Shown here in pieces: positions 4,096 through 63,951 of a DNA stretch of 64,000 nucleotides; position 1 is the stretch's first letter, and the number at the start of each line of letters is the position of its first letter. The notes under the pieces were generated by a model. The model was not told the origin of the DNA and did not search any database. It worked only from the letters and a program-made list of their open reading frames with translations. A program made the translations under genes and the position numbers. This DNA comes from Bacteroidia bacterium (GTDB lineage Bacteria; Bacteroidota; Bacteroidia; AKYH767-A; OLB10), in the NCBI GenBank assembly GCA_016788185.1, contig JAEUTF010000128.1, positions 16,500 to 80,499 on the forward strand, written 5' to 3'.

Positions 4096-4116
4096 TCCTG
4101 CATCAGTAATCATCAG

Positions 4117-4149
4117 AAAGGCTGCCCGCAAAGGCAGCCTTTTCTTTTT
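4117..4149 (+). terminator. Intrinsic terminator after rpsA
   Basis: Stem aaaggctgcc / ggcagccttt with a 6-nt loop, followed by a T-rich run (tctttttc). Confidence 0.8.
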
Positions 4150-4186
4150 CAAGTATGAATTTGCTTTTTTTATTAATTTTGAAGCC

Positions 4187-5669: not shown

Positions 5670-5748
5670 ACAATGAACCGTTGACAACGACTGAAGCAAT
5701 CACTTGCACAGACCCCGGCGAAGAATTACATTTGAAAAAATTCCAGGT

Positions 5749-6132: not shown

Positions 6133-6158
6133 TACCTTTATAGCTCTAAATTCAGGTT

Positions 6159-6917
6159 ATGAAGAAATTCCTACTCGTATGTGCGGTGGCATTGTTCGCT
6201 TTTAATCCATCTGCTTCCGCACAATGTGTACCCAATACCACCATCACCCAACCCGGCATTACACCTGACAGCGCTACCGGTCTTGCTTCCGGAATCAGCG
6301 GACAGCTTTATACACAGGTCATGCAAATCCGCGTACCTGCCGATACGGTGGTTGAACTCATCCCCGGGGTTCCGGTTACCGTTCCGATTACCTCCATCAC
6401 CTTGACTTCCTTTACCGGCCTTCCGCCCGGAATTACCTATACCTGTACCCCCTCCAACTGTGTCTTCCCGGGAGGTTCAAACGGCTGCGTCCTGATTAGC
6501 GGAACCACAAATGTTGCTGGCAATTACCCACTTACAGCGATCATCTCTACTGTCGCTTCTGTATTTGGAAACCCGGTGACCCAGGTGGATACCCTTTCCT
6601 ATTACAGCATTGACATTAGTAATGCAACGACCGGAATTGACGAAAGTACAGGTTTGAATTTTTCGATGGATCAAAACAGTCCCAACCCCTGCAATGAAAA
6701 TACGGGGATCCGCTACAGCTTGCCTTCGTCCGGTGAAGTGGACTTCAGGATTTTCAACCTGATTGGAAAAGAGGTTTACCGAAGCCTGCTGAATGCGGAG
6801 CAGGGCATCAATGAACTTCGTCTGGACAGTCGCGACTTTGCCCCCGGCGTTTACATGTACACCATGACTTTCAACGGAGAGACCCTCTCCAAACGCATGG
6901 TCATTTCGCGTAAATAA
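6159..6917 (+). CDS. Secreted protein with T9SS type-A C-terminal sorting domain
   Basis: Signal peptide ending ASAQC. The C-terminus QNSPNPCNENTGIRYSLPSSGEVDFRIFNLIGKEVY...GVYMYTMTFNGETLSKRMVISRK is a textbook Por/T9SS tail. Confidence 0.9.
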   Translation: MKKFLLVCAVALFAFNPSASAQCVPNTTITQPGITPDSATGLASGISGQLYTQVMQIRVPADTVVELIPGVPVTVPITSITLTSFTGLPPGITYTCTPSNCVFPGGSNGCVLISGTTNVAGNYPLTAIISTVASVFGNPVTQVDTLSYYSIDISNATTGIDESTGLNFSMDQNSPNPCNENTGIRYSLPSSGEVDFRIFNLIGKEVYRSLLNAEQGINELRLDSRDFAPGVYMYTMTFNGETLSKRMVISRK

Positions 6918-6919
6918 GT

Positions 6920-7837
6920 ATGGGGTTTGAACTCACCATTCTCGGGAGCAGTTCAGCCACTCCGATTTACAACCGTCATCCCACTTCACAGCTACTGATC
7001 TTTCGCGACCGTCATTTCCTCATCGATTGCGGGGAAGGTACGCAGATGCAGATGCTGAAATACAAGATCCGCTACCACCGGATCAGCCATATTTTTATCA
7101 GTCATTTGCACGGCGACCATTACCTGGGGCTGATGGGCTTGCTGTCCACCTATCACCTGCAGGGGCGTTCCAGCGATCTTCACCTGTTCGGTCAACAGGA
7201 ACTCATGGACGTCATTGAAATGCATTTACGACTATCCCAGACGCAATTGCGCTACAACCTGATCTTTCATCCCATCCGGCACTATTCACCTGAAATTCTG
7301 CTGGAGGACGATGAATTGTATGTGCGTACCATCGTCCTCAGTCATCGCATTCCCTGTACCGGATTTGTTTTTGGCGAAAAGCCACGTCCCCGTCGCCTGA
7401 AAGTGGAGAAACTGCAGGAATACAATATTCCGTTTACCCAATACACCCGCATAAAAGCCGGCGATCACTTTACCGATGCGGAAGGCCATACCATTTTAAA
7501 CGAAGAACTGACCGAATCTCCTCCGGCTCCGAGATCCTATGCCTTTTGTTCCGACACGATTTATTTACCTGAACTGGCCGAAGATGTAAAAGGGGTTGAT
7601 CTGCTCTACCATGAGGCCACCTTTCTTCACGAAATGAAGGAACGTGCGGCGGCGACCTTTCACAGCACCGCGCGCGAAGCCGCTATGATCGCCCGCGAAG
7701 CCCGGGCCGGGAAACTGCTCATCGGGCATTTTTCAGCCCGTTACAAAGCCCTGGAGCCCCTGCTCGACGAAGCCAGGGAGATTTTTCCCAATACGGAAAT
7801 GGCCATTGAAGGCGAAGTGTTCAGGCTCGAAGAATAA
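6920..7837 (+). CDS. rnz: Ribonuclease Z (tRNA 3' endonuclease, metallo-beta-lactamase fold)
   Basis: 305 aa with HLHGDHYLGL zinc motif. N-terminal ILGSSSATP...RHPTSQLL and C-terminal GHFSARY are typical of short-form RNase Z. Confidence 0.9.
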   Translation: MGFELTILGSSSATPIYNRHPTSQLLIFRDRHFLIDCGEGTQMQMLKYKIRYHRISHIFISHLHGDHYLGLMGLLSTYHLQGRSSDLHLFGQQELMDVIEMHLRLSQTQLRYNLIFHPIRHYSPEILLEDDELYVRTIVLSHRIPCTGFVFGEKPRPRRLKVEKLQEYNIPFTQYTRIKAGDHFTDAEGHTILNEELTESPPAPRSYAFCSDTIYLPELAEDVKGVDLLYHEATFLHEMKERAAATFHSTAREAAMIAREARAGKLLIGHFSARYKALEPLLDEAREIFPNTEMAIEGEVFRLEE

Positions 7838-7891
7838 AAAAAGGAGGAACCCCCTCGCATGGAGCCCCTCCCGTTAACAGAATAATTATTT

Positions 7892-23601: not shown

Positions 23602-25164
23602 TTACTTCGCGTAATTCACGGCCCTGGTTTCCCGGATTACGGTAACCTTTACCTGTCCGGGATAGGTCATCTCGGTCTGGATCTTGTTGGCAATATCGAA
23701 TGACAATTGTTCGGTTTGTTTATCGTCCAGTTTTTCACTTTCCACAATGACACGCAATTCGCGTCCCGCCTGGATGGCAAAAGCTTTCTCAACGCCTTTG
23801 TACGACTGAGCCAGGTTCTCCATTTCCTTCAGACGCTTCATGTACTGCTCCACAATTTCACGTCTTGCACCCGGCCTGGCCCCGCTGATCGCATCGCAGA
23901 CCTGGATGATGGGCGAAAGAATACTGGTCATTTCAATTTCATCGTGGTGGGCACCGATGGCATTGCATACTTCCGGATTTTCCTTCGAGCGTTCGGCCAT
24001 TTTCATGCCGGCAATGGCGTGCGGAAGTTCCATGTCTTCTTCGGCCACTTTTCCGATATCGTGCAGAAGTCCGGCGCGCTTGGCCAGTTTTACATTCAAA
24101 CCGAGTTCAGCCGCCATCAACGCGCAGAGGTTGGCTACCTCACGGCTATGTTGCAAAAGGTTTTGTCCGTAGGAGGAGCGGTATTTCATCCGACCTACCA
24201 TGCGGATCAGTTCCGGGGCCAACCCGTGTATGCCCAGGTCGATGGCCGTACGCTTTCCGGTTTCTACAATTTCCTCGTCCAGCTGACGCTTCACTTTGGC
24301 CACCACTTCTTCGATACGGGCCGGATGAATACGACCATCGGAAACCAGTTGGTGAAGGGCCAGTCGTGCCAGTTCCCGGCGAACCGGATCAAAGCCCGAA
24401 AGGATGATGGCTTCGGGTGTATCGTCAACGATAATTTCTATTCCTGTGGCAGCCTCCAGCGCGCGTATGTTACGGCCCTCACGTCCGATTACCCTTCCCT
24501 TCACTTCATCGTTGTCGATGTGGAATACGGTAACGGCATTTTCAATGGCATGCTCGGTAGCCACCCTTTGAATGGTCTGAATAACGATTTTCTTGGCTTC
24601 TTTGTTGGCCGTCAGTTTCGCCTCATCCATGGTCTCCTTGATGAATTGCATGGCGCCCGTTTTGGCCTCTGCCTTTAACGCTTCCACCAGTTGCGCTTTT
24701 GCATCTTCAGCAGATAATCCGGCAATTTTCTCCAGCGCCTGAACCTGCTTGTGATGGGCTTTGTCCAGGTCTTCTTTTCGGCGATCCACAATCTCCAGCT
24801 GGGAGGTAAGATTGGCCTGCATGGCTTCGAGTTCCGCCTGTTTGCGCTTGTTCTGTTCGATCTGCTGGTTCAGATTCCCTTCCTTTTGCTTTATTCTGCT
24901 CTCCGCCTGCTGAATGTTTTTGTCTTTCTCCGCGATGTGCTTCTCGTGCTCGGTTTTCATCTGATAGAAGCGGTCCTTCGCTTCCATCGTCTTGTCCTTA
25001 AGCAGTATCTCTCCCTTCGCCTGGGCTTCCTTGATGATGGCATTCGCCTTTTCCTCTGCCGCTGCGATGAAGGTCTGGTTGTTTTTCCGGGTGATCAGGT
25101 ATGCAATCAGGCCTCCAATCACCAGTCCTGCAAGCGCCGCTATGATGATGAATATATTGTCCAT
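23602..25164 (-). CDS. rny: Ribonuclease Y
   Basis: 520 aa with an N-terminal TM helix, coiled coil, KH domain ([15 protein letters not shown]) and HD domain (LLHDIGK...GAHH). Confidence 0.97.
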
Positions 25165-35212: not shown

Positions 35213-35329
35213 GAACAGGCTTTATCGAAATGCAATGGATATAATTCATCAGGCGCCAAGATAATCGTTTTAAATTTTAACTATATTTCGACCGATTCGG
35301 ATTGAAAATTACCTAGACCAGATTTAACT

Positions 35330-36415
35330 ATGGCGTCTGTAAAAAGTAAAAAGGCGGCTACGACAAAAAAAGCGGCAAAAAAATCTGCTTCGGCCAAGGC
35401 GCTGAAGCCAAAGGCTAAAGCATCAAAGAAAAAGCTGGTTAAAAAAGCTGCAGCTCCCAAAAAGCAAATTAAAAAAGTTGCAGGCAAGAAGGCACCTGCG
35501 GTAAAAAAATCCAAAGTCTCCGCAAAGAAGGCCGCTCCTAAAAAAGCAGTAAAGTCATCTAAAGCCCCGAAAGCCGCTAATGGCATATCAAAGCAGGCAC
35601 CAAAAAGTAAAAAAGCGCTTCCCGTTAAGGTGAAGTCAGCCCCTGTCAAAGTCAAATCCTTGCCGGCTAAAGCCAGCTCACCTTTGAAAGTGCCCGTTTC
35701 TGTCAAAGGAAAAGAAAAAGGGAAAGAAAAATCAAAAGACAAAATCAAGGATAAGGTAAAACCGGTAAAAGCGGCTGCATCGCTCCAAAAAACACCGTCC
35801 TCAGCAGAGAAGAAAAAGGAGAATCAGGCAAAGCCTGCGGATGTAAACTCCCGTAAAAAACAGAGCAGCGAGGCGATAGAACCATTGCAGGCGAAAGCGG
35901 AAAAGGCAATCAAAGAACTGGAAGAGCGGATGGACCTGAGTAAAATGAGGCCCAGGATTCAGGCTGGCACCGGTCATCTGAAACCATTGCACAAACCGGT
36001 TCTGCCATTGCCCAAACTGCCCGAACCAACCAACACCACCAAAGAAAAGTTTCAACTGGAATTCGAATTCCGCTCATCGCCGAAAATCCTGTTTACTTCC
36101 CTGAGCGACTCCAGCGGTTTAGCCGGATGGTTTGCCGATGAAGTGCATACCAAGGACGATGTGTATACCTTCGTTTGGGAAGGAGGGGAGTCGCTTGCCA
36201 AGCTCATTGCGCTCAGAGACCTGCAACTGGTGCGCTTTCAATGGCTGGACGATACCGATGGAACATATTTTCAGTTTGAAATCAAAGAAGACGATATCAC
36301 CTCTGACATCGCCCTGGTCATCACTGATTTTGCCAATCCCGGTGAAAGGGAAACCAATATCCGGCTTTGGGAATCACAGGTGCAGAAATTGCGGATGCTC
36401 CTGGGCAGCCTTTAG
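35330..36415 (+). CDS. Histone-H1-like Lys/Ala-rich protein fused to a START/AHSA1-like (SRPBCC) C-terminal domain
   Basis: The first ~190 aa are AKK/PKK low-complexity (KKAAKKSASAKALKPKAKASKKKLVKKAAAPKK...). The last ~125 aa (FQLEFEFRSSPKILFTSLSDSSGLAGWFADEV...VRFQW...YFQFEI...) look like a START-like fold. Confidence 0.75.
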   Translation: MASVKSKKAATTKKAAKKSASAKALKPKAKASKKKLVKKAAAPKKQIKKVAGKKAPAVKKSKVSAKKAAPKKAVKSSKAPKAANGISKQAPKSKKALPVKVKSAPVKVKSLPAKASSPLKVPVSVKGKEKGKEKSKDKIKDKVKPVKAAASLQKTPSSAEKKKENQAKPADVNSRKKQSSEAIEPLQAKAEKAIKELEERMDLSKMRPRIQAGTGHLKPLHKPVLPLPKLPEPTNTTKEKFQLEFEFRSSPKILFTSLSDSSGLAGWFADEVHTKDDVYTFVWEGGESLAKLIALRDLQLVRFQWLDDTDGTYFQFEIKEDDITSDIALVITDFANPGERETNIRLWESQVQKLRMLLGSL

Positions 36416-40896: not shown

Positions 40897-43800
40897 ATGG
40901 AAAAAACCGCTACCCTATCAAACACGTGGAAAAAATGCACGCTGTCAATAAAACTATGGATGGCTTTCACCTGTATTCTGGTTCATTTTAGCAACGATCT
41001 GCGTGCACAGATTTCAGTGACCGTAACCAATCCGGCCAATACCACACCCAACCTGTCAGCCACGTATCCTTCCCTTTCAAGTGCTCTGAATGCCCTGAAC
41101 GCGGTCACGGCCATGACTGGCCCTGTTACCTTAACGCTCGGCGCCGGCACATCCGAAACGGCTCCTCCCAATGGACTGACCATTGGCAGTGCCACGCTCA
41201 ATCCTGTTTTGAGTCCGGTAAACACCGTGACCCTCATCAAGGCCGGTGGCATCGTTACCTTAAATGCGGGAATTGGGGTGGCCACACCCTCCAGTGCGGT
41301 ACCCGATGGCATCCTTAAAATTGCTGGTGCCGATTACATCACCCTCAACGGACTGACCTTTACGGATGGCAATCTTAGTAACCCGGCCACCATGGAATTC
41401 GGACTGGCACTGTTCAAAGCAAGTCCATCCGATGGCGCCGGCAACAATACCATTCAGAATTGCTCCTTTAATATGCAGCGTGTAAACAACGATGCAGGAA
41501 CTGCTCCAATGGCGGAGGGTTCGGTGGCCATCCTGGTGATCAATGCCGCTCCTGGAGCAGCAACCACTGCGCTTACCCCAACCACAGCAGCCGGAACAAA
41601 TTCAAACAATAGATTTTTTAACAATACCATCATTGGCGGTAATTATGGAATCGTTTTAAGCGGATTTGCAGCCAGCTCACCTTTTACTACCGGAGACCAG
41701 GGCAATGACATAGGAGGAACCGGAACATCCACAGGAAATTTCATTTTCAATTACGGCGGTGGTGGCAGCTTAAATCAGGCAGCAGCCATCCGGGCCAATC
41801 ATCAATGGTCGCTTAATATTTCCTATAACACCATCAACAACAACAATGGGGGAGGAGTGAACCATGGAACAACGCTTCGCGGAATTCATACAGAGACGGG
41901 TAACGGAGCCAGTGCCACCATCAACAACAACTCGGTTACTGTCAATGGAGGTGGAACCACAACAGCTTTGATCGCGATTGACAATGGACTCGGTAACGCC
42001 GGCAGTTCCAATACCATCCAAATAAACAACAACACCATCAGTGCGTGTACCTATTCAACAGCTACCAGCGGAACTTTTACAGGAATTCAAAATACCGCAA
42101 CGGCTGCAACGGTGAATATAAATGGCAATACAGTATCCGGAAATTCGACAGGAGGTACCGGCCTTCACAACATGATTTTAAATACCGCCGTGCTTCCTGT
42201 ACTGAACATCAATTCAAACACCATCAGCAACAACCTGCGTACAGCTTCCTCCGGAACACAAAGGGGGATCAGTTTTGGAAGTCCGAGCGTCGGCACGATC
42301 AATGGCAATACGATTGAATTAATGAGTTTTCCACTTACTGCCACTTCTGTTGCAATCGATGGCATCTATGGTCTATCCAATTCGGTCAACATGACCATTA
42401 ACAACAACATCATCAGAAATCTGTCTATCCCTTCTACAGGAATAATTACCGGAATTCGTGAATTCGGCATCAGTGGGAACAAAATCATTCAAAACAACCA
42501 GGTGTTTAATTTCACCACCGTCTCAGGAGGAACAGGTGGTTCAACGTTTATTGGAATAAACTGCTCGGTAGGCGACATTAATATCAGCAATAACCTTATA
42601 CACAGCCTGAACAGTACGGGAAGTCCGGGTGGTGCGAGTGGAGGCTGCGCGGGAATCCAGATCACCAACAGTACCACCAGCGTCATTTCCAGGAATAAAA
42701 TTTACAATATCTCAAGCGCCAGTGTCACTCCCACCGTGGTAGGTATCATCACCGGAGGAGGTGCCAACACCTCCATATTCAACAACCTGGTGGGCGATTT
42801 GAGAACACCTTCCGCCAACTCTACCCATCCGCTGGCCGGCATCAGCATATCCGGTGGAAGTGTAGCCCATGTTTCCTACAACACCATTTATTTAAACACC
42901 AGTAGTTCCGGACTTAATTTTGGCTCGAGCGGAATATACGCCTCCATCACCCCAACGCTGACGTTGAGAAACAACATTGTCATCAACACGTCTGCATTTT
43001 CCGGTTCGGGTTTAACGGCTGCTTATCGCCGAAGCAGCGGAACCACCGGTGTGATTCCGTCCACCTATTCGCCGGCTTCCGACAATAATATCTTCTTTGC
43101 GGGAATTCACTTTATTTATGTTGAAGGTATAGGACCCTACACCAACGTACAAAATACCATGGCGGGCTACAAAGCATTTATGGTTTCCATCGATCAGGCC
43201 TCGGTAACGGAAAATTGTGTTCCTTCCTTCTTAAGCACTGTGGGTAGTTCAGCCGGTTTCCTGCACTTTTTACCCGGAGCCAGTACCCTGGCGGAAAGTG
43301 CCGCCTTCCCCATCCCGGGGATCACCGATGATTTTGACGGCAATGCGAGAAGTGCCTCTTCCCCGGATATCGGCGCCGATGAATTTTCAGGTTCCAACCC
43401 GTCTTTCGTCGCACTCGACATGCGACCCTTCGGACTACTGACACCTTCTTCATCGTCTTGTTACGGCTCTGCGGAAGTCATCACAGCCCAGTTGAAAAAC
43501 AATGGTACCAACGCCCTGAATTTTGCAGTGAACAATTGCAACGTTTCTGTTACGGTGACGGGACCGGTCAGCACCTCATTCAATGCCACCATCAATACCG
43601 GCACCCTTGCTCCAGGAGCCACCATGAATTTACTCTTGCCGGGAACCCTGAACATGTCCGCTGCAGGCACCTATTCATTCACCATTAATACAACCATGGC
43701 TGGTGATCTGAATCCATCCAATGATAATTTCGGACCGACCACACGTACGGTCAACTCCTCTGTTTCATTACCTCAAATGGTAAATTTCAACGGCTATAAC

Positions 43801-46800
43801 GGCTCAAACCTCAGTACTGTTTTTCCCGGATGGCGCGAAGCAAATACCGCCATTCTTCCGACAGGAACCACCTCCTCCTGGACCAGCAGCACTATAATTC
43901 CTCTTTCTGGCAACACGGCCAGGGTAAACTTGGTTAACAATTCAAAAAATGAATGGCTGGTAGGTCCCAAATTTGTTTGTGGACCGGGTACCTACCTCGG
44001 ATTCAAAATTGCCATCACCGATTTTAATTTTTCCACCCCTGACGCCTCGGGCATGCAGGGTACCGATGATAAGGTGATCGTGAAAATATCAACGGACTGC
44101 GGCAATACCTTTACTGATTTATTTACCTACAATGCGGCCAACACGGCTACCATCAGCAATACACTGGTTCCCCAGTTAATCAACCTGTCCGCCTACAGTG
44201 GCCAGCAGGTTATCATCGCATTCTTTGCAACCGAAGGAGTGGTGAATGACATTCCGGATTATGATTTCCATATTGATGATATCAATATCGGAACCATCTG
44301 TACAGGAACGCCTGTGGCCGGTGCTATTTCAGCATCCGTACCAGGTCCTTTCTGTGGTACCGGCAGTACGGTATTAACTTCCTCCGGAGCTTCTTCTGAT
44401 AACGGTATCGTGTACCAGTGGTACAGTTCTGCGGTGTCCGGTTCGGGCTATACCCCGGTACCCGGGGCGATACTTCCCAATTATACCGCCAGTGGTTTTA
44501 CCTCCTCCGCATTTTTTAAGTTATCGGTCAAATGTATTTCCAGCGGCGACTCCGTACTAAGCAATGAAATAGGCCTTCTGGTACTTCCGAAACCAACGGT
44601 AAGCGTGACTCCGGATTCGGGTGGATACTGTGGCAGCGGCAGCATCGCCCTGGCAGCGTCAGGAGCGGTTTTGTACGCCTGGTCACCTTCCACGGGTCTC
44701 AGTGGCACGACAGGTCCGAATGTAACAGCCAGTCCGGCCAGCAATACGGTTTACACGGTAACCGGTACGGATATAAACGGTTGCACCAACACAGCCACCG
44801 CTTCCGTATATGCTTTCAATATACCGTCGCCCTTGTCCATCGCACCAGCATCCCCCGCTGTTTGTCCTGGTTCTTCCATCCTCTTAAATGCGGTAGGAGG
44901 TACCACCAATGACCTCATTTCCGGGTCGATCACTTTTAATCTGACGAACCCTGCCGGCGATGAAGACAATGGGATTACAGGTACTCCGGGTTTCATATGT
45001 CCGGGCAATAATCAGATAGCTTCCTTTGTTCTTCCCCCTGTTCCGGGAACTTATACCAGTGCCCGTTTGTCCATCAACGGCATCATGCTTCAGGGCAACT
45101 CCTTCGGCTCTGAAATACGGCTTCACCTGAGTGGATCGGGAATTACCGGTACATCGGGATGTTATCAGGGAGCCAGTACAGGGGGAACACCCAACCCCGT
45201 GAATTACCTCACCGGTGTACCCACCCTGAATGATACCACCCTGCTGGCGGCCTTGTTAAACACTGCCGGTGGCACCGTGAACATCCGGTACAGCGAGTCA
45301 TTCAATGACATTATCACCGGACCGGATGCCCTTTTCCCGGCAACCGCCACCTTACAGTACACGTACGCAGCACCACAACCGCTCATCACCTGGAATCCGG
45401 GCAATCTGAGTGGTACTTCACAAACAGTTTCTCCGGCTGTGAGCACGACCTACAGCGCTACGGCCACGTCGATGTTTGGTTGTTCTACCAATGCCAGCAC
45501 GAACGTTATGGTGTATCCACCCATGACGGCATTGGCTGCGGCCGCTAACGCCAGCTGTGCCACCTGTGCCGATGGATCGGTCAGCATCAGTTCCATAAAC
45601 GGAGGTACGCCACCTCACACATTTACCAACCTCAGCGGCCTCCTCCCCGGAAATTACTGCATTCTGGTGACCGACGCGAACGGATGTACCACCACCGCCT
45701 GCGCCACGGTTCAAGGTGCCAATTGCAATCTGCTGGTCAGCACCAGCTTCACCAATGCCTCCTGCAACGGAGCCGCTAACGGCAGCGCCGCCGCCGCCGC
45801 CAGTGGTGGTGTTTTCTCTGGACCGTTTACTTACAGCTGGTCCAATGGTTCTACCGGAGCCAATATCTCGGGCTTATCGGCCGGAACCTATACCGTGGTG
45901 GTGGCTGAGCCTTCCAGTGGTTGCTACGCAGAGAAAAGCGTTCAGATTGCAGAGCCGGAACCCATTGCGGTGAATGCGAGCAGCACCCCCGCCAGTTGCA
46001 CCGGTACGGCCACTGGAAGTATAAACATATCGGTGAGCGGCGGGGCGGTTCCCGAAAACAGTGTTTTTGATTTCAACAGTGGACTTCAGGGCTGGACCAC
46101 AGGAAGCCTGGGGACATCTTGTTCCGGAAATGCCACCGCCAGCTCCGGATGGAGTTCGCAGGCTTTTGGCTTCTCGGGAAGCAGTTTTGGTATTCCCGGC
46201 CCGAACAGCAATGTCCAGAACAGCTACATCGAATCGCCTGTATTGAATCTTCCATCCGTCATTCACCTGAATGCCAGATCGTGGTCAAACAACGAAGGAG
46301 GATACCCCTGTTTTTACGACGTGGAATATGCAGAATATTCTACCGATGGAGGGATCAGCTGGCAGCCTTTCTTCAACATCTACCAGACCAACCTGCACAA
46401 CGGTGACATCGCATCCTGGAACATGCTGAATTACTCGGCAAATATCATCCCCAGCACCAATGGCAAAATACGTTTTCGTTACGACACCGGCGACGGTTGC
46501 TGCGGCAGCACCGTTAACAACCCGGGATGGTTTATTGACGATGTAACCATTGCCAACACGACCACCACGCCGGCCACCTTCACCTTTTTGTGGAGCAATG
46601 GTTCTACGGCACAAAATCTCAGTGGTGTAACGGCCGGAACCTATACACTTACCGTTACCTCTTCAAACGGATGCAGCTACGTCAGTACACATACGGTTGC
46701 CGATCCGGTTCCGCTGGTAGCCGATGCCAGCGGTACGGGTGTAAGTTGTTTTGGTGGCAATGACGGAACCGCCACGGTGAGTGCCAGCGGTGGCAACCTG

Positions 46801-49800
46801 ATGAACTATTCCGTTGGCAGTGTCGCAGGATCTTTGCCGTTTCAGGGTTCAGTTGCAGTGGCACCTGTTCCGATCGGAACCTGTAATTGTCCGCCCGGTT
46901 TTGTGGCTGTTGGTTTCAGTGCCAGAGCCGGGTCCTTTGTGGATCAGATCAACCTGGAATGCCGTGAATTGTTAAGCAACGGAACCTTGGGTGCCACGGT
47001 GGTTTCAACCTGCACCAATGGCACCAGTGGAGGAGGTATTCCATATGGTCCGTATTTATCAGTCGGCAACCAGGCGCTGGTGAAAGCTACCATTCTTGAA
47101 CCCACCAACCCTTGCCCCAATTGCTACCCACGCGGAATGAACGCCGATTCAAAAGCGATATCCGAAATTGCGGCGGGCAGCAGCAACAACTCCGGGCTTA
47201 GCAACATTGGTGGGTTTGTAACTTTCGGAGGCAGCCCCAATACCGTTACTGCACCCGATGGACATGCCATCGTGGGCATGATTACGTATACAACCAGCGG
47301 AGCCGGCTGGTTTCAGGGCGTTCAATTTCTGTATGCGCCTATTATCGCTACAACTCAACCTTCCTCATATACCTGGAGCAATGGTGCGACCACGTCATCC
47401 ATCAGCGGTTTATCACCGGGCAATTATTGCGTTACCATTACCGATGCGAACGGATGCACCGCCAGCGATTGTTACCAGGTTACACAGTCGGCAAGCCCTC
47501 TTTCAGTGATTTGCCACGGCAGTGCTGTTACCTGTAACGGTGCCAATGACGGCATTGCTGCCGTGACGGCGAACGGAGGAAGTACCTACCAGGGTTCTCC
47601 CTACGGTGAACATACCTTCAGTTATACAGGATCCGTTCAGACCTTTACGGTACCACCCGGAGTCACCTCCATCAACATCGAAGCCTTCGGAGCACAGGGT
47701 GCTTCGGGTTCACCAGGCGGTAACGCCAGTGCCGGTGGAGCTGGTGGATTGGGCGCCAAAGTGAAGGGGAGCATGGCTGTTATACCCGGACAGACCTTTA
47801 CGATTCATGTAGGAGGAGCTGCTTCCGGTGCCACCGCTGGTTTCAACGGCGGCGGAACAGGAGGAAATCAACTCGCCGGTGGCGGTGGTGGTGCCTCTGA
47901 TGTTCGTTTCGGCGGCACGACGGCAGCACATCGGATACTCGTAGCCGGTGGCGGTGGCGGCGGTGGCCGTGGTGGCTGTGAACAAACAGTCGCTTTTGGC
48001 GGAGCCGGTGGTGTTGGAGGAGGAGGTAGCGGAGCGAACGGTGCCAATGCCCCTACATCCGGCGGGGTGGCCGGGGGTGGATTTGGCGCGGCCGGACAAA
48101 CCGGCGGAGCGGCCGGTGTGGGCTGTAGCGGCTTCCTGGGTATTCCCGGCCTTTCTGCGACCAATGAAAACGGAGCGAACGGAGGAGATGGCCAATCCTG
48201 TTGCTGCTTTAACGCATTCAGCATCCCTGGTGGCGGCGGCGGCGGCGGCGGATACCTCGGCGGCGGCGGTGGCGGCGGCGGATCTGCCGGTACCGTAAGT
48301 TGCTCCGGAAACGATAAAGGAGGCGGTGGAGGTGGAGCCGGTGGCACCAGTTATCTGGCAGGTATTTTAAGCAATACCCTGACGGCAAACGGCATCCATG
48401 CCGGAAACGGAAAAGTAGTGATCAGTTACGGAGTTCAACCGTATACGTATGCATGGAGCAACGGTGGTACAACGGCCAGCATCAATGGTCTTGCGCCGGG
48501 TACCTATTGTGTAACGGTAACGGATAGTACCGGATGTTCAGAAACCTGCTGCTATACCATTTTTGAACCGGCTCCATTAACGGCCACCATGACGAAAACA
48601 GATCCCGTTTGCAATGGCGATACCAATGGCGTAGCCACGGCGATGGTCACCGGCGGTCTGACTACCGATCTTCAGGTGAATACACCTTTTGCCGGCAGTC
48701 CTCTGTCCTATGGGGCATCCTTCGGTCCTCAGGTTTTCAACCTGACTGCCGATGTGGTGTACCTGGCGGATCAAAGCGCTTCGTACCTGGGTTGTTCACC
48801 CTATACCCCCGGTAACCTGACCGGTAAAATTGCACTGATCGACCGGGGTACCTGTACGTTTGTTACCAAAGTGCTGAATGCACAAAATGCAGGAGCAATC
48901 GGTGTCATCATGGTTCAGAATACCACGGCAGCGCCGGTTGTAATGGGAGGAGCCAATGCAGCAATCACCATCCCTTCCATGATGATCAGCCTTTCAGACG
49001 GAGCATCCTTGAAAGCGGCCCTTACCGGTTTAAATACGGTCAATGTTACTTTAAGTTCTACCGCTTATCAGTATACCTGGTCAAATGGAAGTACAGGAAC
49101 GAACACGATTACCGGATTGGGAGCAACAACCTATAGCGTTACCATCAGCGATGCTTCAGGTTGTACCACTTCCGGGTCAACAACATTGATAGATCCCCCT
49201 GCCTTGCTCGTGAGCACCACTTCATCCGCTGTTACCTGCAATGGCCTGTCCAACGGTACGGCCACTGCCAATGCCAGTGGAGGAAATCCAAACTGTGACT
49301 TAGGTGCTACCGATGTCATCAACAACTTTTTCATTGTAAGCCCGACCATTTCATCAGGTCAGAATTTTGTTGCCTGTAATACCGGAGCCATCACACAGAT
49401 CACCGTAAATGTCAATACCGGAACAACCGGCCAGATCATGCTTTCCATGGCCCCGGGAACCGACACCTCCGTACCAACCTATACACAACTGCTGAATGCG
49501 CCAACCACCGCAGGAGTGTGGGTGATCAACCTGACTACGCCCTTCCCGGTGACCATGGGTAACACCTATTCGTTTTCACTGGGTGGACCCGGAAGTACAG
49601 TACCGGCCAGTTTCATCGGGATTGGCTTCACAGACCCTGGCTTGTCGTATCTCAGCGGAAATGCCATTCAGAATAATGCTCAGGTGTCAACGGCCGACCT
49701 TTACTTTGGAATACATGTGGCCGGCAGTGTGAATTTACCCTACACTTTTGCCTGGAGCAACGGCGCCACCAGCAGCGGTTTCGGTTCAACCATTGGCGGA

Positions 49801-52794
49801 TTGCCTGCAGGAAGCTATATGGTGACCGTTACAGACTATTATGGTTGCTCAGACATCGAAATAATAACGGTGACACAACCGGATCCGGTTAGCGCCACCG
49901 TTGCAACCAGCGGTGTGTTATGTGCTGAAAGCCCGAACGGCACCATCAACTTAACCCCAACAGGCGGGACTGCACCTTACAGCTTTTTGTGGAGCAATGG
50001 TTCTACGCTCGAAGATCAAAGCGGACTCACGGCCGGGACTTACACGGTGATTATTACCGATTTCAGCGGTTGCACCGGGACGGTCACAGCCATGGTAAGC
50101 TGCTCAGACAACATTCCACCAACCCTCATCTATCCACCCAGCATGGCCAATGCCATGTTTGAGAATTTTGAATCCGGAGGCCTTGCCCCGGGATGGACAG
50201 CAGGTGGATTATGGCATGTGACTGCCGCATGTTCAACGGGAACGCCGCCCAACCCCACCAAATGGGCTTATTATGGTATCGACGGTACCTGCACCTTTAA
50301 CAATGGTTCAACCAACAGCGGAGACCTGACTTCCGCCACGGTGGCGATACCAGCCAATGCCGCCAATGCAAAACTGCGGTTCCGGTATGTGTACAATGGG
50401 GAGGGAGGGTTTCCGCCTTCCGGATATGACAATGCATCGGCAAGAATCAGCATCAACAGTGGCCCCTTTGTACAGATTCAAAGTCTGAGCACCTCGGGTT
50501 CGAATGGAACATGGCTGGTCGCAGAAATGGATTTAAGTGGATATGCCGGTAGTACCGTTGCCCTTCAATGGAATTTCAATACCGTGGATGGTATTGCCAA
50601 TAGTTTCCTCGGATTACAGATTGACAGTGTGGTCGTTTCCTATTCGGATGATTGCCCGGCCGATATCGTCACCACCAACCTGCCAGGCGTGTGCGGAAAC
50701 AACGTCGCCTGGATAGCTCCCGTGGCCAGCGATAATTGCGCCGTGGTCATTACCAGCAACAAGAATCCCGGCGACTTCTTCCCGATCGGGACCACGGTGG
50801 TGACCTACACGGCTACCGACGGTTGTGGTAATGTGCGCACCTGCAGCTTCAATGTGATCGTAAATCAGTCCGGGCCTCCGATTCTCACCCTCAGCGGTAC
50901 CGCCAATACAATTTGTGCAGGAAGTAGCAATGGCGGCGTTAACCTTACCGTAACCGGCGGGGCCGCGCCCTACACCTATGCCTGGTCAAACGGGGCGACC
51001 ACCCAGGATTTATCAGGAGTTGGCGCCGGCAACTATACCGTCACCGTGACGGAAGCCAACGGCTGTTCGGCCATTTACAATGCAAGCATCAACGCCATCA
51101 GCCCGAATGTAAACCAACCTGCCGGTCAGGTGGTATGTGAAAATACGGCTACTACGGCCGTTAGCTTCAGCGGATCCATTCCCGGAACAAGCTTCAGCTG
51201 GTCCAACAACGAAACCGGAATCGGTCTTGCGGCCGCCGGCACAGGAAATATTTCATCCTTCATTGCGCAGAATCCGGGGTCCATACCACTCACGGCCACC
51301 ATTACCGTTACGCCTTCAACACCAATCGTTCCCGAACTGCTGTATTATAAATTCAACGGTTCAGGACCAGCGGTGCCCAACCTGGCCAGCAGCCCTCCCG
51401 GAGGTGCGGCCAGCCTGATGGGTGGACTCACACAGGGTGGAAGCGGAATCTGCAACGGAACACTGATCGGAACAGGCATTGCTTCGAATCTGGATTACCT
51501 GAATACTGGCTGGGCTCCCAATCTGCCCGCTGGTAATTCATGGACCATTTCCTTCAAAACCTCCAACATCAACGGACCTGCATCAACCCTGAATTATATA
51601 TTCGGTGATCCCTCGGCCGGATCGCTGCGTTGTTTCACGAACGGAGTGGCAGGAACCGGGAACTGGATTTTACGCGGACCATTCAATGATGTGCTGGTAC
51701 CGGGTGCGGCGAGTATTGCACCGCATACCATCACCTTTGTTTACGATCAGTCCGCGGGAAACATCAAAGCTTATGTGGATGGTATCCTGATCAATACGGT
51801 GATTCAGTCAACCGCCATCAGCCTGGTTGGCAGCGGACCCTTTAAAGTGGGTGGTTACAGCAGTAATGTTGGATTGCCTGCCGGTGGCTTGATGGATGAA
51901 TTCATGTTGTTTAGCCGCGCTCTGAATCCTGCAGAGGTACAAAGCCTGGCTGCCGGTTGTGATGCGCTGAACTGTACAGGCAGCCCAACAAGTTTTACCA
52001 TTACCGTGAATCCTCTGACCAACTATTATACAGATGGCGACGGGGATGGATTTGGAGCCGGGGCAGCCACCTCCGCTTGCACGGCACCTCCCGGTACGGT
52101 AAGTAACAACACAGACTGTAACGATGCCAACTTCGCCGTGAATCCAAATGCGACGGAGGTTTGCAATGGCATTGACGATGATTGCGACGGACTCACGGAC
52201 GAAGGCTGTACCTCGGGAGCAAGCTTTAACCTCACGGCATTGATAGAGGGTTATTACATCGGGGGAGGAAATATGCAATCGGTACTCCTCAATGCAGGAG
52301 TCAGTGCCAATCCTACCCTGTGTGATACCATCGTTGTGCAATTGCGCGATCCGCTCAGTCCCTCCACCGTGGTTGCTTCCGACAAGGTCGTGATGGGTGT
52401 AAACGGACAGGCCACCTTCAGTTTCCCTGCATCGGTGGTGGGCAACAGTTATTACATAGCCGTGCTGCACCGCAATGCCATTCAGACCTGGAGTGCCTTG
52501 CCGGTCACCTTTACCTTGACCACGAGCTATAATTTCACCACTTCACCGGCACAGGCATACGGAGCAAACATGATTGCCGTCTCTCCGGGAATTTATGCTT
52601 TCTACAGCGGTGATCTTTCGCCGCAGGATGAAGTGGTGGATATCCTGGATCAGTCGGTCATGGACAACGATATCTTTAATTTCTTAAGCGGATATGTGGT
52701 TACGGATCTGACAGGAGATGGAATTGTTGATATCATTGACCAGTCGATCATTGATAACAACATCTTTAATTTTATAGGTTCGATTCATCCCTGA
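40897..52794 (+). CDS. Giant (3965 aa) mosaic cell-surface/adhesin-like protein
   Basis: Single uninterrupted ORF with a signal/anchor-like N-terminus. Approximate domain order, read from motifs:
- parallel beta-helix repeats (41.3-43.1 kb; [34 protein letters not shown]...)
- CARDB-like module (43.41-43.74 kb)
- three MAM/choice-of-anchor-J-like modules
- Ig/PKD-like modules
- about 10 SprB-type repeats (45.55-51.09 kb)
- glycine-rich domain
- PA domain ([33 protein letters not shown])
- HYR domain (50650-50868)
- LamG-like domain (51.33-51.96 kb)
- MopE-like motif (52024-52212)
- dockerin-like C-terminus. Confidence 0.9.
   Translation: [3965 protein letters not shown]
45550..51090 (+). repeat. 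Array of SprB-type protein repeats (coding), several of them interrupted by inserted domains
   Basis: Recurring C.G..[ND]G........GG..PY.[YF].WSNG.T.....GL.[AP]G.Y.V.[VI].D..GC units. A 25-nt identical stretch (ctttttgtggagcaatggttctacg) occurs at 46584-46608 and 49983-50007. Confidence 0.8.
47608..48432 (+). other. Glycine-rich domain (Pfam Gly_rich / ALK-LTK GRD-like) within the giant ORF
   Basis: [31 protein letters not shown]...[27 protein letters not shown]...GFNGGGTGG...[13 protein letters not shown]...[16 protein letters not shown]...[20 protein letters not shown]...[10 protein letters not shown]. Confidence 0.7.
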
Positions 52795-59505: not shown

Positions 59506-62500
59506 TTACTGGCCCAGGAAGCGCTTTACAAACTCGGCTTTTTTCCGGTCGGTACTTAGCATGAATTCATAAGCCGGCGTATCACCCTTGGATTCAGCAA
59601 CCCGCTTTTCAGGTTTCATGTTATTGATGGCATCGTTGAACTTGCTGTCGGACGAAATGGACTGCATGATACCTCTCGAATAATTGAAATACCACCAGGT
59701 GGCGTTATCCGACTCCAGATACAGATTAAAGACTTCACTTCCTCTCTTGCGCTGGATCTCAAAGTAGCCTTTTACTTGCCGGTTGATGCTTTCCTTGCCG
59801 ATGAATCCGATGCCGATGGGCCCGCTCGATCTGTACGCCTGGCTCTCTTTATCCCAGTAGAGTTTTAAATCGCTCAGGAAGATCGTTTGCTGCAATTCCT
59901 GTGGCAGTCGCTTTGGAGCACCGTATAAGCTGTATTCTGAAATCATTTTGTCGGTCTTTTCTATGCCAACAATTTCCTTCATCCCGCGTACCCAGGTAGT
60001 ACGGGTATCATCGCTTGGCTTTAAGGTGGGATTGCCAGTGATCAACTCCGTCATGCTTTTCATGGCATCGTTGTTAAACATGAAATCTAATCCGACTAAA
60101 AGATCAAAAGTGGTGGAGTCGTTGTTGGTGTTGTTGGTGACATTCCCTACCACCATCATTTTAAACTGACCGAAATTGGTGGCCAGATTCATTTTACCCT
60201 CACCGTAAACGGTGCAATTGGCATCATTCAGCTGAACCAGGTTACCCGGTGCATCCGGCGATTTGATTTTATCGGGATTGGTTACTTTATATACCTTGGC
60301 TTTGGGATCGTAGGACAATACACCATTGGCGGTAATCAGGTCAGCGTCCGCACCTCTCTTCTTGGGTGAGAGGAAAGAAGAATAAAAACCAGTGCTGTCG
60401 GAGGAGAGGGATATGGCTACAGCGAGTTTTTCATAATTCTCATTTTTCGGCTCTGTGATGGGAATGTTCACCCCGTTCGGGTCGATATCACTCTTAAAAC
60501 TGAACCAGTTGGCCGGCAGTTTTTCAGCGCACTGATGATTAACCCTCGCAAATCCTTCGAAGTTTAACAGAGGATTGGCCGCCATGATGTTTACGCCTCC
60601 CTTGTACTGGATATTCGTGCTCAGCAGGAAGTTGCTTGAATCGGCAATCACCCCGTTGGCATAGGTCTGAAGCGAGGTGTCGATGGCAATTCTTTGCAAC
60701 TGTATCAAATGCTTCACCTTTGCCTGATCGGTGTAGGCGTATTTTCCGGTGGCCGTGTAGCTCTTTCTGCCCAGTACATTGACCGTAGCATCGCTGATCA
60801 TATGATACCTGGTACTGGTGTTGGCCACTATTTTCGCCTCTTGCAACGGACGCATCACCGCATTTCTTTCGATCACGATGGTGGAACTGTCGTTCGGCTG
60901 GATGGAGGCGTCGGCAACAAGAATCTCTTTTACCTTCCGGGCTTTGATCAGGTAATCGATCAGGCTGTATCGTGCCAGCCCGGCGTTCCAGCGGAGCGAA
61001 TCCTGAAACGGATTGATGGAGACAAAATCGGATCCTTCGATATTGAGCTTCGTATTGTCCTTGTAGTCTTCCCCGAATTCAACTTCCTGCTTGTCGATGA
61101 ACCATTTGAACTGGGCAATGTAGCAGATGTACTGGTTAAGCGGGAAACTCACGAAGGAGCCCTTCCCGTTTGAAATAAAATCACCGAAACGTTTCACCAG
61201 GTCGATGCGTGATTTCACGTTTCGCGTCTGGATGGCCAGTACGCTGGCATCGTCTGACTTGAGTTTAAAGTCAGACGTATCAGCACCATAGGCATCCTGC
61301 TTGAACCAGAAATCTTTGGAATACAACTCAGATTCCAAAAAATAGGAATCTCCGTTACCGCCCAGTCCTTTGGCAGCCAGCACCAGGTTGCCATCCACAC
61401 TAACGGTTTTATCGTAAACCTCCAGGTTGCTGCTTTGTTTAAACACATACATTTTGTCTTCGCGGGGACGCCAGTTGATATAGGTATCGGAACCATTGGC
61501 CTGTGGAAATCCTACACCGGCAATCGTTTCTTTCCGCAGCTCCCACTGCGCCTTGCCGAGATTCGTGGAGTCCGGGAAAAAGAGAATATCCTTCGACTCC
61601 GACAAGGAACTGAGGTATTCTACTTTTCCATCGCCTTTCAGTCCCGCATAGCTCAGGTCGATATGGTTGAAATACCTGCCTTTTCCTCCATACATGGCAT
61701 ATCCCTCAGGCGGACTCTCCCGTTCAAATCCAAAGGAATAATCAGGCCGGATAATGGCGGTTTCGGCAATGGTGGGGAAGATCCCGGCCGACTCGAAATT
61801 CCCCTGAAACTTCAGACCTCCTGCCGAAAAATTATCCAGTGAATCAATCGTAAAGGGATCCATCTTGAAATAGAACTTGTCACGGGAGTACACTCCGTTA
61901 TAAATGGAGGGATGGTCATAGTAAACAAAGGCTTCCTTGTCGCTGACAAAAACAGGGTAGGGGGGATAACTCTTCCTGCTTGATTTGTTGCTGAGGCTGT
62001 CAATAAAAATTTTCCCGGTAACATTCTGAAGGGTACTCTTGAGGGGGATGAGTTTGGGATTTCCATTCTCATCAAATTCCGTGTCGGAAACCACCTTCAA
62101 CCGGATGGAATCGACATTGGCCAGGTCGATTCTGAACTGATCGTACAGAAACTTGAACTTTTTGCCATAGAAATCACTGCGCCCGGCATGCACCCTCCCG
62201 TTGAACTCAAAGTCACGGTTTTTCAGCAGACGCATTTCCTGGTTGACCGGAGCAATCCATACTTGCTGTGAATCACTGAGTAAAATCCGTCCTACTCCCT
62301 GCAGATCCATTTCAAAATTCATCAGGTTGAGCTTGGCGTTGGGGATCGCCGAAATCACCGACTCGATCTCAATTTTATCGTAATCGGTTTTATTGCTTCG
62401 GGCAGCCAGGTAGTAATACAATTTGTCGTTGATGGTGGCCACATCCTCTTCAAAATCATAACTGACAAAACCCTTGTTGGCCAGAAAAATAATCAGTGAG

Positions 62501-63951
62501 CGCGCCTGCTGATCACTGACCCGCATGTACTTCGCCAGTTCCACAGGATAAATGTAACGGCTGGTTTTTTCCGCATACTGCTTCAAGGTAAACAATGGAC
62601 TGACATCTGAAATGCCCTGTATTTTCTGAAAGCGTTCATCGGTATACAGGTTGTTCGATTCCAGCACCATTTTACTTTCTCCCTGTCCGCTGAGCATTTT
62701 TAACTCCATCAAAGGATTGTCAATTTTCCAGTAAATGGCATCTACATACATGTCCATCTGGTGGAAAGAATTGAAAAAGGGCATGGTGATACCCGAATTG
62801 GATGAACGGATAAGACTCAGCTCACGATCCTTGCTGATGTATTTCATTTCAAGGGAAGGATGGTACAGGGAATCCTTATCAAAATAGCAAACGAAGGAGG
62901 CATTGTCGGAACTGATCCGGTCGGGTTTTACCACGAAACTCCTCGATGAAACCACCAGAAATGCTTTCTTGTCGCGTTTAAAAGTGAGGGTGGCCTTTTG
63001 TTCTTTGGTACCGGCGCCTATCATTTTATTACCCTGCTGGGCAAAGCCCCCCAGGTAATCCGCATCCTTAACAATCTCCTTGATGCCCAGCTTTAAATCG
63101 TAGGACATGAAGCGAGGATAGCTGGCATTCTCGGGATTCACATTGGCCAGGATCTTATCCACCACTTTCCCCCTGAGCGGTTCTTTGAAGAGCTGTTTGT
63201 TGTAAAATACGGCGCTGTCGGTACCCCATTCCGAACTGGTCAGGTCAACCGTGGTGGTGAGAAGATCGGCATACACCACCGCCGGATTCAGGCCGGCCCG
63301 GGTCCAGTACAATTTACCCCCGGTACCAACAAAGGTTTTACTGAGTGGATAATAATACCCTTTTATACCGCTGATGATGCTGCTGTCATTCTTGGCATAA
63401 CAACTGAGATCCATCGATGGAAAACTGATCCGCGGCACTGTATCAAATTCAAAGAGGTAATTACCGGTACTGGCAACCCATTTTGTTGAACCTGACTCGT
63501 ACAAAACGTTAGCCACAAAGAGTCCGGCCACATTCTCGATGTAATCGCTGTAACGCTTTGATGATCCCGTAAGCATCTTTTCCAAACTGTTGTGCCAGTT
63601 CAAAAACACCTGGTTATCGCGCCCTGAACGGATAAACGCCATCAGGGCGGCCACATAATTGCTGAAGTCTGGATAGGGCTTCATCCGTTTCTTCAGCATG
63701 TTATTGGCGGTAGTGATCACGGTCCTTTGCTGCTCACCGTTAAACCGTGGCTCTTTCAACCAAACCTCCTCAAAGGCGTCCATCACTTTTTCCGTCTCTT
63801 TCTTGTTGGTGAGCTCCATATAGCCTTTCAACTCCTTGAAAAATACGGCCGGGTCATTGCTGAATGATTTTGGGGCCTGCCCCTGACACTCAGCGAGTGT
63901 GAGAAACAGGAATAGAGCCAACAGGATATTTTTAATACATGGCATGCACAT
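59506..63951 (-). CDS. Large (1481 aa) exported hypothetical protein
   Basis: Uninterrupted ORF with a signal peptide (LALFLFLTLAECQGQ). Predicted beta-rich, with no motif I can assign. Confidence 0.8.
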   Translation of the reverse strand: MCMPCIKNILLALFLFLTLAECQGQAPKSFSNDPAVFFKELKGYMELTNKKETEKVMDAFEEVWLKEPRFNGEQQRTVITTANNMLKKRMKPYPDFSNYVAALMAFIRSGRDNQVFLNWHNSLEKMLTGSSKRYSDYIENVAGLFVANVLYESGSTKWVASTGNYLFEFDTVPRISFPSMDLSCYAKNDSSIISGIKGYYYPLSKTFVGTGGKLYWTRAGLNPAVVYADLLTTTVDLTSSEWGTDSAVFYNKQLFKEPLRGKVVDKILANVNPENASYPRFMSYDLKLGIKEIVKDADYLGGFAQQGNKMIGAGTKEQKATLTFKRDKKAFLVVSSRSFVVKPDRISSDNASFVCYFDKDSLYHPSLEMKYISKDRELSLIRSSNSGITMPFFNSFHQMDMYVDAIYWKIDNPLMELKMLSGQGESKMVLESNNLYTDERFQKIQGISDVSPLFTLKQYAEKTSRYIYPVELAKYMRVSDQQARSLIIFLANKGFVSYDFEEDVATINDKLYYYLAARSNKTDYDKIEIESVISAIPNAKLNLMNFEMDLQGVGRILLSDSQQVWIAPVNQEMRLLKNRDFEFNGRVHAGRSDFYGKKFKFLYDQFRIDLANVDSIRLKVVSDTEFDENGNPKLIPLKSTLQNVTGKIFIDSLSNKSSRKSYPPYPVFVSDKEAFVYYDHPSIYNGVYSRDKFYFKMDPFTIDSLDNFSAGGLKFQGNFESAGIFPTIAETAIIRPDYSFGFERESPPEGYAMYGGKGRYFNHIDLSYAGLKGDGKVEYLSSLSESKDILFFPDSTNLGKAQWELRKETIAGVGFPQANGSDTYINWRPREDKMYVFKQSSNLEVYDKTVSVDGNLVLAAKGLGGNGDSYFLESELYSKDFWFKQDAYGADTSDFKLKSDDASVLAIQTRNVKSRIDLVKRFGDFISNGKGSFVSFPLNQYICYIAQFKWFIDKQEVEFGEDYKDNTKLNIEGSDFVSINPFQDSLRWNAGLARYSLIDYLIKARKVKEILVADASIQPNDSSTIVIERNAVMRPLQEAKIVANTSTRYHMISDATVNVLGRKSYTATGKYAYTDQAKVKHLIQLQRIAIDTSLQTYANGVIADSSNFLLSTNIQYKGGVNIMAANPLLNFEGFARVNHQCAEKLPANWFSFKSDIDPNGVNIPITEPKNENYEKLAVAISLSSDSTGFYSSFLSPKKRGADADLITANGVLSYDPKAKVYKVTNPDKIKSPDAPGNLVQLNDANCTVYGEGKMNLATNFGQFKMMVVGNVTNNTNNDSTTFDLLVGLDFMFNNDAMKSMTELITGNPTLKPSDDTRTTWVRGMKEIVGIEKTDKMISEYSLYGAPKRLPQELQQTIFLSDLKLYWDKESQAYRSSGPIGIGFIGKESINRQVKGYFEIQRKRGSEVFNLYLESDNATWWYFNYSRGIMQSISSDSKFNDAINNMKPEKRVAESKGDTPAYEFMLSTDRKKAEFVKRFLGQ

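Follow-up and report, generated by a model that had tools for sequence, protein, structure and literature searches.

The giant repeat proteins of Bacteroidota, such as SprB, GhpA and thousands of relatives yet to be characterised, resist interpretation as long as it is not known which of their parts bind. A locus of a Bacteroidia bacterium (assembly GCA_016788185.1, contig JAEUTF010000128.1) raises the question of whether such parts can sit inside the stalk repeats themselves. We analysed 64,000 nucleotides of this contig (positions 16,500 to 80,499, hereafter the window), and all nucleotide coordinates refer to this stretch. The element in question is a single giant open reading frame (ORF).

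40897..52794, + strand: giant ORF, 3965 aa, a single open frame of 11.9 kb

An earlier reading of the letters (hereafter the sequence-only reading) had proposed that five consecutive SprB-type repeats of this protein are each interrupted, directly after a GG, by a different inserted domain. With a probability of roughly 80%, we consider the whole best explained by an SprB-type stalk that carries guest domains inserted at the turn between strands B and C, the halves of each interrupted repeat folding together and the guests budding sideways.

Five of eight SprB-type units are split after the same GG

The ORF contains eight SprB-type units, three intact and five split. The halves were located with two hidden Markov models (HMMs). 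We gathered 991 intact units from 120 homologous proteins, aligned 300 of them and cut the alignment after the GG. This gave an N-half HMM of 30 positions and a C-half HMM of 47 positions, both trained on units of other proteins. N-half matches ended at aa 1638, 1716, 1966, 2228, 2587, 2796, 3024 and 3355, always at the final model position (the GG). C-half matches started at aa 1642, 1894, 2153, 2513, 2722, 2948, 3025 and 3357, at model positions 1-3. The two halves are adjacent in the intact units (1638/1642, 3024/3025 and 3355/3357). In the split units, the E-values ranged from 1e-9 to 4e-4 for the N-half and from 5e-14 to 4e-19 for the C-half. The units and half-units are as follows; pLDDT (predicted local distance difference test) values are from AlphaFold2 models.

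45721..45957, + strand: intact SprB unit, aa 1609-1687, 68-77 bits over the full model
45955..46044, + strand: unit 1 N-half, aa 1687-1716, strands A and B ending in GG; model positions 1-30, E 1.4e-6; pLDDT 84-97
46576..46707, + strand: unit 1 C-half, aa 1894-1937; model positions 3-46, E 5e-16; pLDDT 92-98
46705..46794, + strand: unit 2 N-half, aa 1937-1966; E 7e-9; pLDDT 83-96
47353..47490, + strand: unit 2 C-half, aa 2153-2198; E 2e-17; pLDDT 90-97
47491..47580, + strand: unit 3 N-half, aa 2199-2228; model positions 11-30, E 4e-4
48433..48573, + strand: unit 3 C-half, aa 2513-2559; E 4e-19
48568..48657, + strand: unit 4 N-half, aa 2558-2587; E 1e-9
49060..49200, + strand: unit 4 C-half, aa 2722-2768; E 5e-14
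49195..49284, + strand: unit 5 N-half, aa 2767-2796; E 2e-8
49738..49884, + strand: unit 5 C-half, aa 2948-2996; E 5e-16
49885..50100, + strand: intact SprB unit, aa 2997-3068, 73 bits, model positions 3-74
50887..51093, + strand: intact SprB unit, aa 3331-3399, 79 bits, model positions 7-74

In all five split units, the cut falls directly after the GG, at position 30 of the 77-position model. The split units are truly consecutive (aa 1687-2996), because each C-half ends where the next N-half begins, with no intact unit between them. The motifs on which the sequence-only reading was built were all found in their places in this one ORF. Its insert sizes (about 180, 190, 285, 135 and 150 aa) agree well with the 177, 186, 284, 134 and 151 aa obtained for units 1-5 with the half-HMMs.

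The full-unit model of ~77 aa (C.G..dG ... GG.PY.Y.WS ... D.nGC) gave the three intact units 68-79 bits. The Pfam SprB model (PF13573) matched 7 stretches of the protein with 110.4 bits (cut-off 28). With 37 residues, this model cannot itself show a discontinuity, and the split of the SprB hits proposed by the sequence-only reading became visible in the half-HMM coordinates, which are complementary in all five units. We also surveyed ~380 other SprB-rich proteins. The same repeat occurs there with and without inserts, and splits are rare: about 8 split units versus 5225 intact N-to-C junctions. Since five of the eight units are split in the present protein, chance is excluded as the cause of the splits. 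Within the 3965-aa protein, the split hosts do not cluster apart from the intact ones (33-53% identity), which gives no evidence of a landing-pad lineage.

Probable packing of the two halves of a split unit

Do the two halves belong to one domain? The N-half and C-half motifs could be separate elements, degenerate or truncated repeats that alternate with other domains in plain linear order. The small number of stretches (only seven) returned by the 37-residue Pfam model would fit such an order. So would the behaviour of the full-unit HMM in units 3 and 4, where the C-half match extends back to model position 12 or 19, into the end of the guest. Against this, the halves are exactly complementary in all five units. 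In addition, when the inserts were removed in silico, the spliced units 1-5 scored as normal full repeats, with 73-81 bits over model positions 2-3 to 76-77; natural units (n=5828) have a median of 81 bits and an interquartile range of 72-88 under the same HMM. In the unspliced protein, the full-unit HMM gave complementary partial matches for units 1, 2 and 5 (for example, model positions 2-33 followed by 32-76). The half-motifs are therefore not separate complete repeats, as the spliced units match one full model from end to end.

Coevolution was determined by mean-field direct coupling analysis (DCA) of 6583 distinct intact units (Meff 5889). The contacts form ladders between strands B and C (27-36, 29-34, 30-34), C and F (34-59, 36-57, 38-55), F and G (54-72, 56-70, 57-69) and A and G (8-71, 11-68). 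By the B-C ladder, the cut between positions 30 and 31 lies where the B-C hairpin turns. The N-half strands both pair with strands of the C-half, and a free N-half therefore makes no structural sense; a two-strand piece of 30 residues cannot fold alone. Cys15 and Cys65 occur together in 6170 of the 6583 units, and both are retained in all five split units. A further point against the linear order comes from unit 4, in which the guest is a PA domain: the 'vnvtL' strand that ends this guest also occurs in the PA domains of M36 peptidases, where there is no SprB context. Taken with the complementary halves and the spliced scores, these observations make a plain linear order very unlikely.

We modelled units 1 and 2 with AlphaFold2. 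The input alignments were checked and contained intact repeats spanning the gap. The block-mean pLDDT values of unit 1 were 84, 96 and 97 for the N-half and 92-98 for the C-half; those of unit 2 were 83, 96 and 95 for the N-half and 90-97 for the C-half. In both units the strands lie at the places expected from DCA. The linkers at the two junctions of unit 1 are short, 6-7 residues at both ends. The sequence-only reading had proposed structure prediction as a test of whether the two half-repeats pack into one fold, and the high pLDDT of both halves is in line with such a fold for units 1 and 2.

A further arrangement to be considered is strand exchange, in which the halves do form sandwiches but each N-half finds its C-half in the next unit or in a second chain, and the guests lie in line instead of budding from the stalk. 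The models give confidence values rather than the pairing of the halves, and the structural relative GhpA is heptameric, with extensive contacts between Ig-like domains (bioRxiv 10.1101/2024.01.29.577165); both points leave room for such exchange. However, single split units lie between intact ones in four other sequences (P0103, P0324, P0331 and L040; these are our handles), where no partner half is present. The single-unit AlphaFold models are confident for both halves, and the short linkers at both junctions also argue against exchange. We give it little credence.

The profile of the host unit matched solved Ig-like structures, namely GhpA (9flp, 1e-66), a phage decoration protein (8zvi, 7e-9) and collagenase PKD domains. 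When the HMMER unit profile was aligned to GhpA (9flp residues 863-1390), a gap of ~400 residues appeared after the GG. In our reading, this gap is an artefact of joining separate repeats and sets no precedent for a split. An N-half-like piece is seen at GhpA 863-889 in the same profile alignment, whose gap is probably artefactual. Alignment programs also had difficulty with the split units. MAFFT set the long gap correctly for units 1, 2 and 5 only, and it misplaced rows in composite alignments of the PA unit that were built from intact repeats and PA homologues, with half-repeat fragments and other split units as guides.

The repeat architecture is discontinuous at one exact point. On homology, coevolution in intact units and model confidence, we infer that the two halves of a split unit pack together.

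Guest domains and the recurrence of host-guest cassettes

The inserts (guests) occupy the following positions.

46045..46575, + strand: guest 1, aa 1717-1893, 177 aa, probable jelly roll of the MAM / gingipain cleaved-adhesin / carbohydrate-binding module (CBM) type
46795..47352, + strand: guest 2, aa 1967-2152, 186 aa, Cys-containing module, tentatively a jacalin-like beta-prism
47581..48432, + strand: guest 3, aa 2229-2512, 284 aa, glycine-rich domain, as seen from its composition
48658..49059, + strand: guest 4, aa 2588-2721, 134 aa, PA domain
49285..49737, + strand: guest 5, aa 2797-2947, 151 aa, module with a weak Pfam DUF4082 match (E 0.009)

Guest 4 is a PA domain, as the sequence-only reading had stated: PF02225 matched with an E-value of 5.2e-21 and 75 bits against a cut-off of 23.9, over model positions 2-95 of 95. 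It is closest to the PA segment of bacterial M36 metallopeptidases (NCBIfam M36 models, 106-122 bits), and PDB PA domains were also matched. For guest 1, the proposed MAM/choice-of-anchor-J-like identity gained some support at the level of the fold. Foldseek matched 4itc, 3m1h, 2c9a and CBM35 (E 4e-4 to 1e-2; best 4itc, E 4e-4, template modelling (TM) score 0.37-0.53), and the fold matches include gingipain cleaved-adhesin domains, MAM, CBM35 and ephrin-receptor heads. The Pfam match of guest 1, Reelin_subrepeat-B (E 6e-4), was under the cut-off.

The remaining guests are less well defined. The jacalin flavour noticed in guest 2 found an echo in weak Foldseek matches to banana lectin, ZG16b and Horcolin (E 0.08-0.7, TM ~0.39, root-mean-square deviation ~4 A over 87 columns), and no Pfam or NCBIfam model matched; about 65 of the 186 residues have a pLDDT below 50 in the model. 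The assignment of guest 3 to Gly_rich (PF12810) gained no HMM support, although its richness in glycine is plain to see: no match was found in Pfam (E up to 5, PF12810 included), NCBIfam or PDB, where bias filtering may hide a true match. For guest 5, a PDB sequence search gave nothing useful. That the guests are autonomous domains is supported by the certain identity of PA and by the guest 2 family, which is found on its own after a signal peptide at most of 38 genome loci.

The sequence-only reading, whose five units all stood, had missed one more split just upstream (aa 1306-1545), in a repeat of a related type.

44812..44901, + strand: unit 0 N-half, aa 1306-1335, CHU_C-associated Ig-like (Ig_7-like) repeat
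44902..45381, + strand: guest 0, aa 1336-1495, 160 aa, no family match in Pfam or NCBIfam
45382..45531, + strand: unit 0 C-half, aa 1496-1545, from the alignment of the spliced halves

When spliced, the halves of unit 0 could be aligned over their full length with the intact repeat next to them (39% identity, E 1e-9). Unit 0 also has a weak Pfam Ig_7 match over model positions 5-80 of 84.

The split-repeat architecture is rare but not unique to the 3965-aa protein. Among the ~380 SprB-rich proteins, genuine splits at the same GG turn were found in P0338 (twice), P0103, P0324 and P0331. Homology queries that included repeat halves were swamped by ordinary SprB arrays, and only P0056 and P0338 proved useful from them. 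In P0338, the guest 2 module splits two SprB units; the guests are 53-54% and the hosts 56-57% identical to those of unit 2. In P0056, the guest 1 module occurs four times (47-55% identity), each copy inserted into the corresponding loop of a related Ig-like repeat. The fragment P0121 shows a PA domain that leads straight into a C-half. The metagenomic ORF L040 (1734 aa, 2672-7876) is collinear with aa 2502-3062 of the protein in the window (44% identity over 573 aa, E 1e-120). It contains, twice in tandem, a block of an intact SprB unit, an SprB unit split by PA and an SprB unit split by a guest-5-like module, placed between a leucine-rich-repeat region and a tail of the type IX secretion system (T9SS) type. 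Its two nested copies of guest 5 are 42-43% identical to guest 5. Both P0338 and L040 end in T9SS type-A-like tails.

Inserts of ~140 aa were also observed in the next loop, after the Y.Y.W strand, in three giant SprB proteins, P0260 (aa 5787-6074), P0269 (aa 5352-5645) and P0349 (aa 5354-5647). A second loop of the repeat can therefore also host a guest.

The guest 2 family occurs in 38 species genomes, mostly alone behind a signal peptide in proteins of ~450-580 aa. It is free-standing in P0378-P0380 and, as an N-terminal domain, at most of the 38 genome loci. P0378-P0380 end in IPTMSEWGLILFALIIF, which resembles a sorting signal of the IPTL-CTERM type. The same family is nested in an Ig_7-like repeat of Hymenobacter saemangeumensis (L027:6001-6447). 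It is also found in a third repeat type, between '..LD.NG...' and '..GS.DNCGI..', in L001, L002, L006, L013 and L025 (module at 6001-65xx in most). These nested copies, together with P0338, P0056 and L040, show that host-guest cassettes are conserved and have been duplicated as blocks, and that one guest family has entered different hosts.

Could the splits be an artefact of assembly (chimerism), or in-frame mobile or intein-like DNA in a decaying gene, and thus have no function? The exact protein is absent from the gene-position collection and its genome is absent among the species representatives, which would suit this explanation. However, the frame is open over its whole 11.9 kb, and five different inserts lie at exactly the same residue. 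The same cassettes of host and guest recur at 42-57% identity in independent assemblies, and the guests belong to common families of extracellular domains rather than to inteins or transposases. Finally, no tandem DNA repeats were found at a score of at least 80, nor any sign of recent duplication or of cassette-flanking repeats at that threshold. An artefact or decay is the least probable of the alternatives, and we regard it as negligible. The central claim of the sequence-only reading, that a single repeat loop serves again and again as the point of insertion, agrees with the complementary halves, the spliced scores, the DCA contacts, the pLDDT values and the recurring cassettes.

Protein context, known systems and a working model

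The 3965-aa protein consists of a signal-peptide-like N-terminus, a beta-helix region, Ig-like and SprB repeats, a MAM-like module, HYR, LamG, a MopE motif and a dockerin-like end. Pfam recognised the SprB repeats, PA domain, HYR, MopE-type motif, LamG-like domain and beta-helix region. The relatives found belong almost all to Saprospiraceae, Lewinellaceae or Chitinophagales, mostly to the first two. The product is most likely a fibre-like surface protein of great size that is secreted by a Bacteroidota bacterium. Neither a type A (PF18962/TIGR04183) nor a type B (PF13585/TIGR04131) sorting domain of the T9SS was matched in the last 571 aa or the last 197 aa. The final ~190 aa of the ORF (52201-52791) contain two dockerin-like segments, DLSPQDEVVDILDQSVMDNDIFNF and DLTGDGIVDIIDQSIIDNNIFNF. 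At 50086-50913, a MAM-like module (InhA-like_MAM, E 3e-4) and an HYR domain (E 4e-15) separate the intact unit of aa 2997-3068 from that of aa 3331-3399; they follow each other in plain linear order and are not nested.

The ORF is flanked by ordinary chromosomal genes (LptF/G, a glycosyltransferase, FloA, an M48 peptidase, PlsY and a tRNA). Elsewhere in the window, a 1481-aa ORF on the - strand (59506-63951) is without a Pfam match at E up to 0.001. The AT skew is extreme at 24750-24999 (-0.58, - strand coding) and at 35300-36049 (+0.41 to +0.52, + strand coding); the A-rich coding strands there presumably reflect low-complexity protein segments.

The sequence-only reading did not know this architecture to be described for SprB-repeat adhesins and took it as new. 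A full-text literature search found no relevant account of domain insertion or split domains in SprB-type repeats. Even so, the claim of novelty was too strong: the architecture occurs in other Bacteroidota proteins, and split Ig-like domains with ligand-binding guests have been described for RTX adhesins (PMC12077191; bioRxiv 10.1101/2025.09.30.679566). In MpIBP, FrhA, AhLap and Acinetobacter Ab3a, ligand-binding domains are projected from Ig-like split (BIg) extenders, and the split serves as a rule to recognise binding domains, with up to six CBMs in Ab3a (PMC12077191; PMC10865825; bioRxiv 10.1101/2025.09.30.679566).

The likeness is close. In both cases a complete guest breaks into an Ig-like stalk domain whose fold is completed afterwards, and several pairs of split and guest stand in series. 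The guests of RTX adhesins are binding modules (CBM-like jelly rolls and others), as the guests here most likely are. The differences are also clear. The host here is an SprB/PKD-like Bacteroidota repeat, not a BIg extender, and the insertion follows the second strand (at the B-C hairpin), whereas it follows the first strand or precedes the last two in RTX adhesins. The guest set (PA, glycine-rich and tentatively jacalin-like modules) differs as well, and five or six different guests stand in directly adjacent units. Pfam and NCBIfam searches with the whole protein and with segments found no retention module, RTX beta-roll or type I secretion signal; thus, the protein is not an RTX adhesin. 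The principle is known from RTX adhesins, from which the present protein differs in its phylum, in the family of its host fold, in where the insertion falls and in its guests.

Other systems share parts of this design. PA domains are habitually inserted modules with adjacent termini (M36, M28, subtilases, C5a peptidase). In those peptidases the host is catalytic; guest 4 sits in a stalk repeat that has no catalytic role. Gram-positive pilus tip adhesins such as RrgA carry binding domains inserted in Ig-like stalk domains; they differ in phylum, in their CnaB-type host folds and isopeptide chemistry, and in that their domains are nested like Russian dolls, not lined up as split repeats in a row. 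SprB of Flavobacterium johnsoniae and the GhpA grappling hook of Aureispira (9flp) share the repeat family and the giant fibre-like format. Typical SprB-repeat giants carry long arrays of intact units, whereas five of eight are split here and no T9SS C-terminal domain was detected.

We propose the following working model. The stalk would be built of SprB-type Ig/PKD-like beta-sandwich repeats of ~77 residues. A complete domain would be inserted at the tight turn of the B-C hairpin (between GG and x-P-Y) in five consecutive repeats and in one Ig-like repeat upstream. The two halves of each split repeat would form a single sandwich in which A pairs with G and B with C, and the Cys pair is kept. 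As the guest would leave and re-enter its host within a few residues at the hairpin tip, the stalk would remain continuous and the guest would project sideways. The guests would most likely be ligand-binding heads, giving one fibre several binding specificities. With guests of the adhesin, lectin-like and PA types, the stretch aa 1300-3000 probably forms a multi-specific region for ligand binding.

Several points weigh against this model. First, the AlphaFold2 support consists of confidence values, not of measured contacts between the halves or measured guest positions; the lateral projection of the guests is what we infer from the hairpin geometry. Because the AlphaFold alignments contained intact repeats across the gap, homology accounts in part for the high confidence of the host halves. 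Second, the DCA contacts derive from intact units alone. Third, in units 3 and 4 the guest ends in a strand similar to strand B of the repeat, and MAFFT and HMMER both align it there; strand replacement in these two units is possible. In addition, Pfam and NCBIfam detected neither a T9SS C-terminal domain nor another anchoring signal in the protein. Finally, the ligand-binding role of the guests is a prediction from their domain types.

If split SprB repeats do mark ligand-binding heads, a discontinuous repeat match would be a cheap rule for locating the functional domains of these giant proteins. The same rule would reach orphan modules such as guests 0, 2 and 5. It would also mean that this engineering solution had an independent origin in another phylum, with another host fold and another secretion context. 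A broader idea, which we offer tentatively and with some doubt, is that the B-C hairpin of SprB-type and related Ig-like repeats is a general, evolvable docking site at which Saprospiria-type Bacteroidota shuffle a stock of binding modules fit for insertion among their giant surface proteins. The occurrence of one guest family in at least three host repeat types and the duplication and movement of host-guest cassettes as blocks bear on this idea. If it holds, the repeat would be a natural display scaffold that diversifies surface specificity. The tolerance of guests of 134 to 284 residues at the B-C hairpin suggests that it may also serve as a scaffold for protein display.

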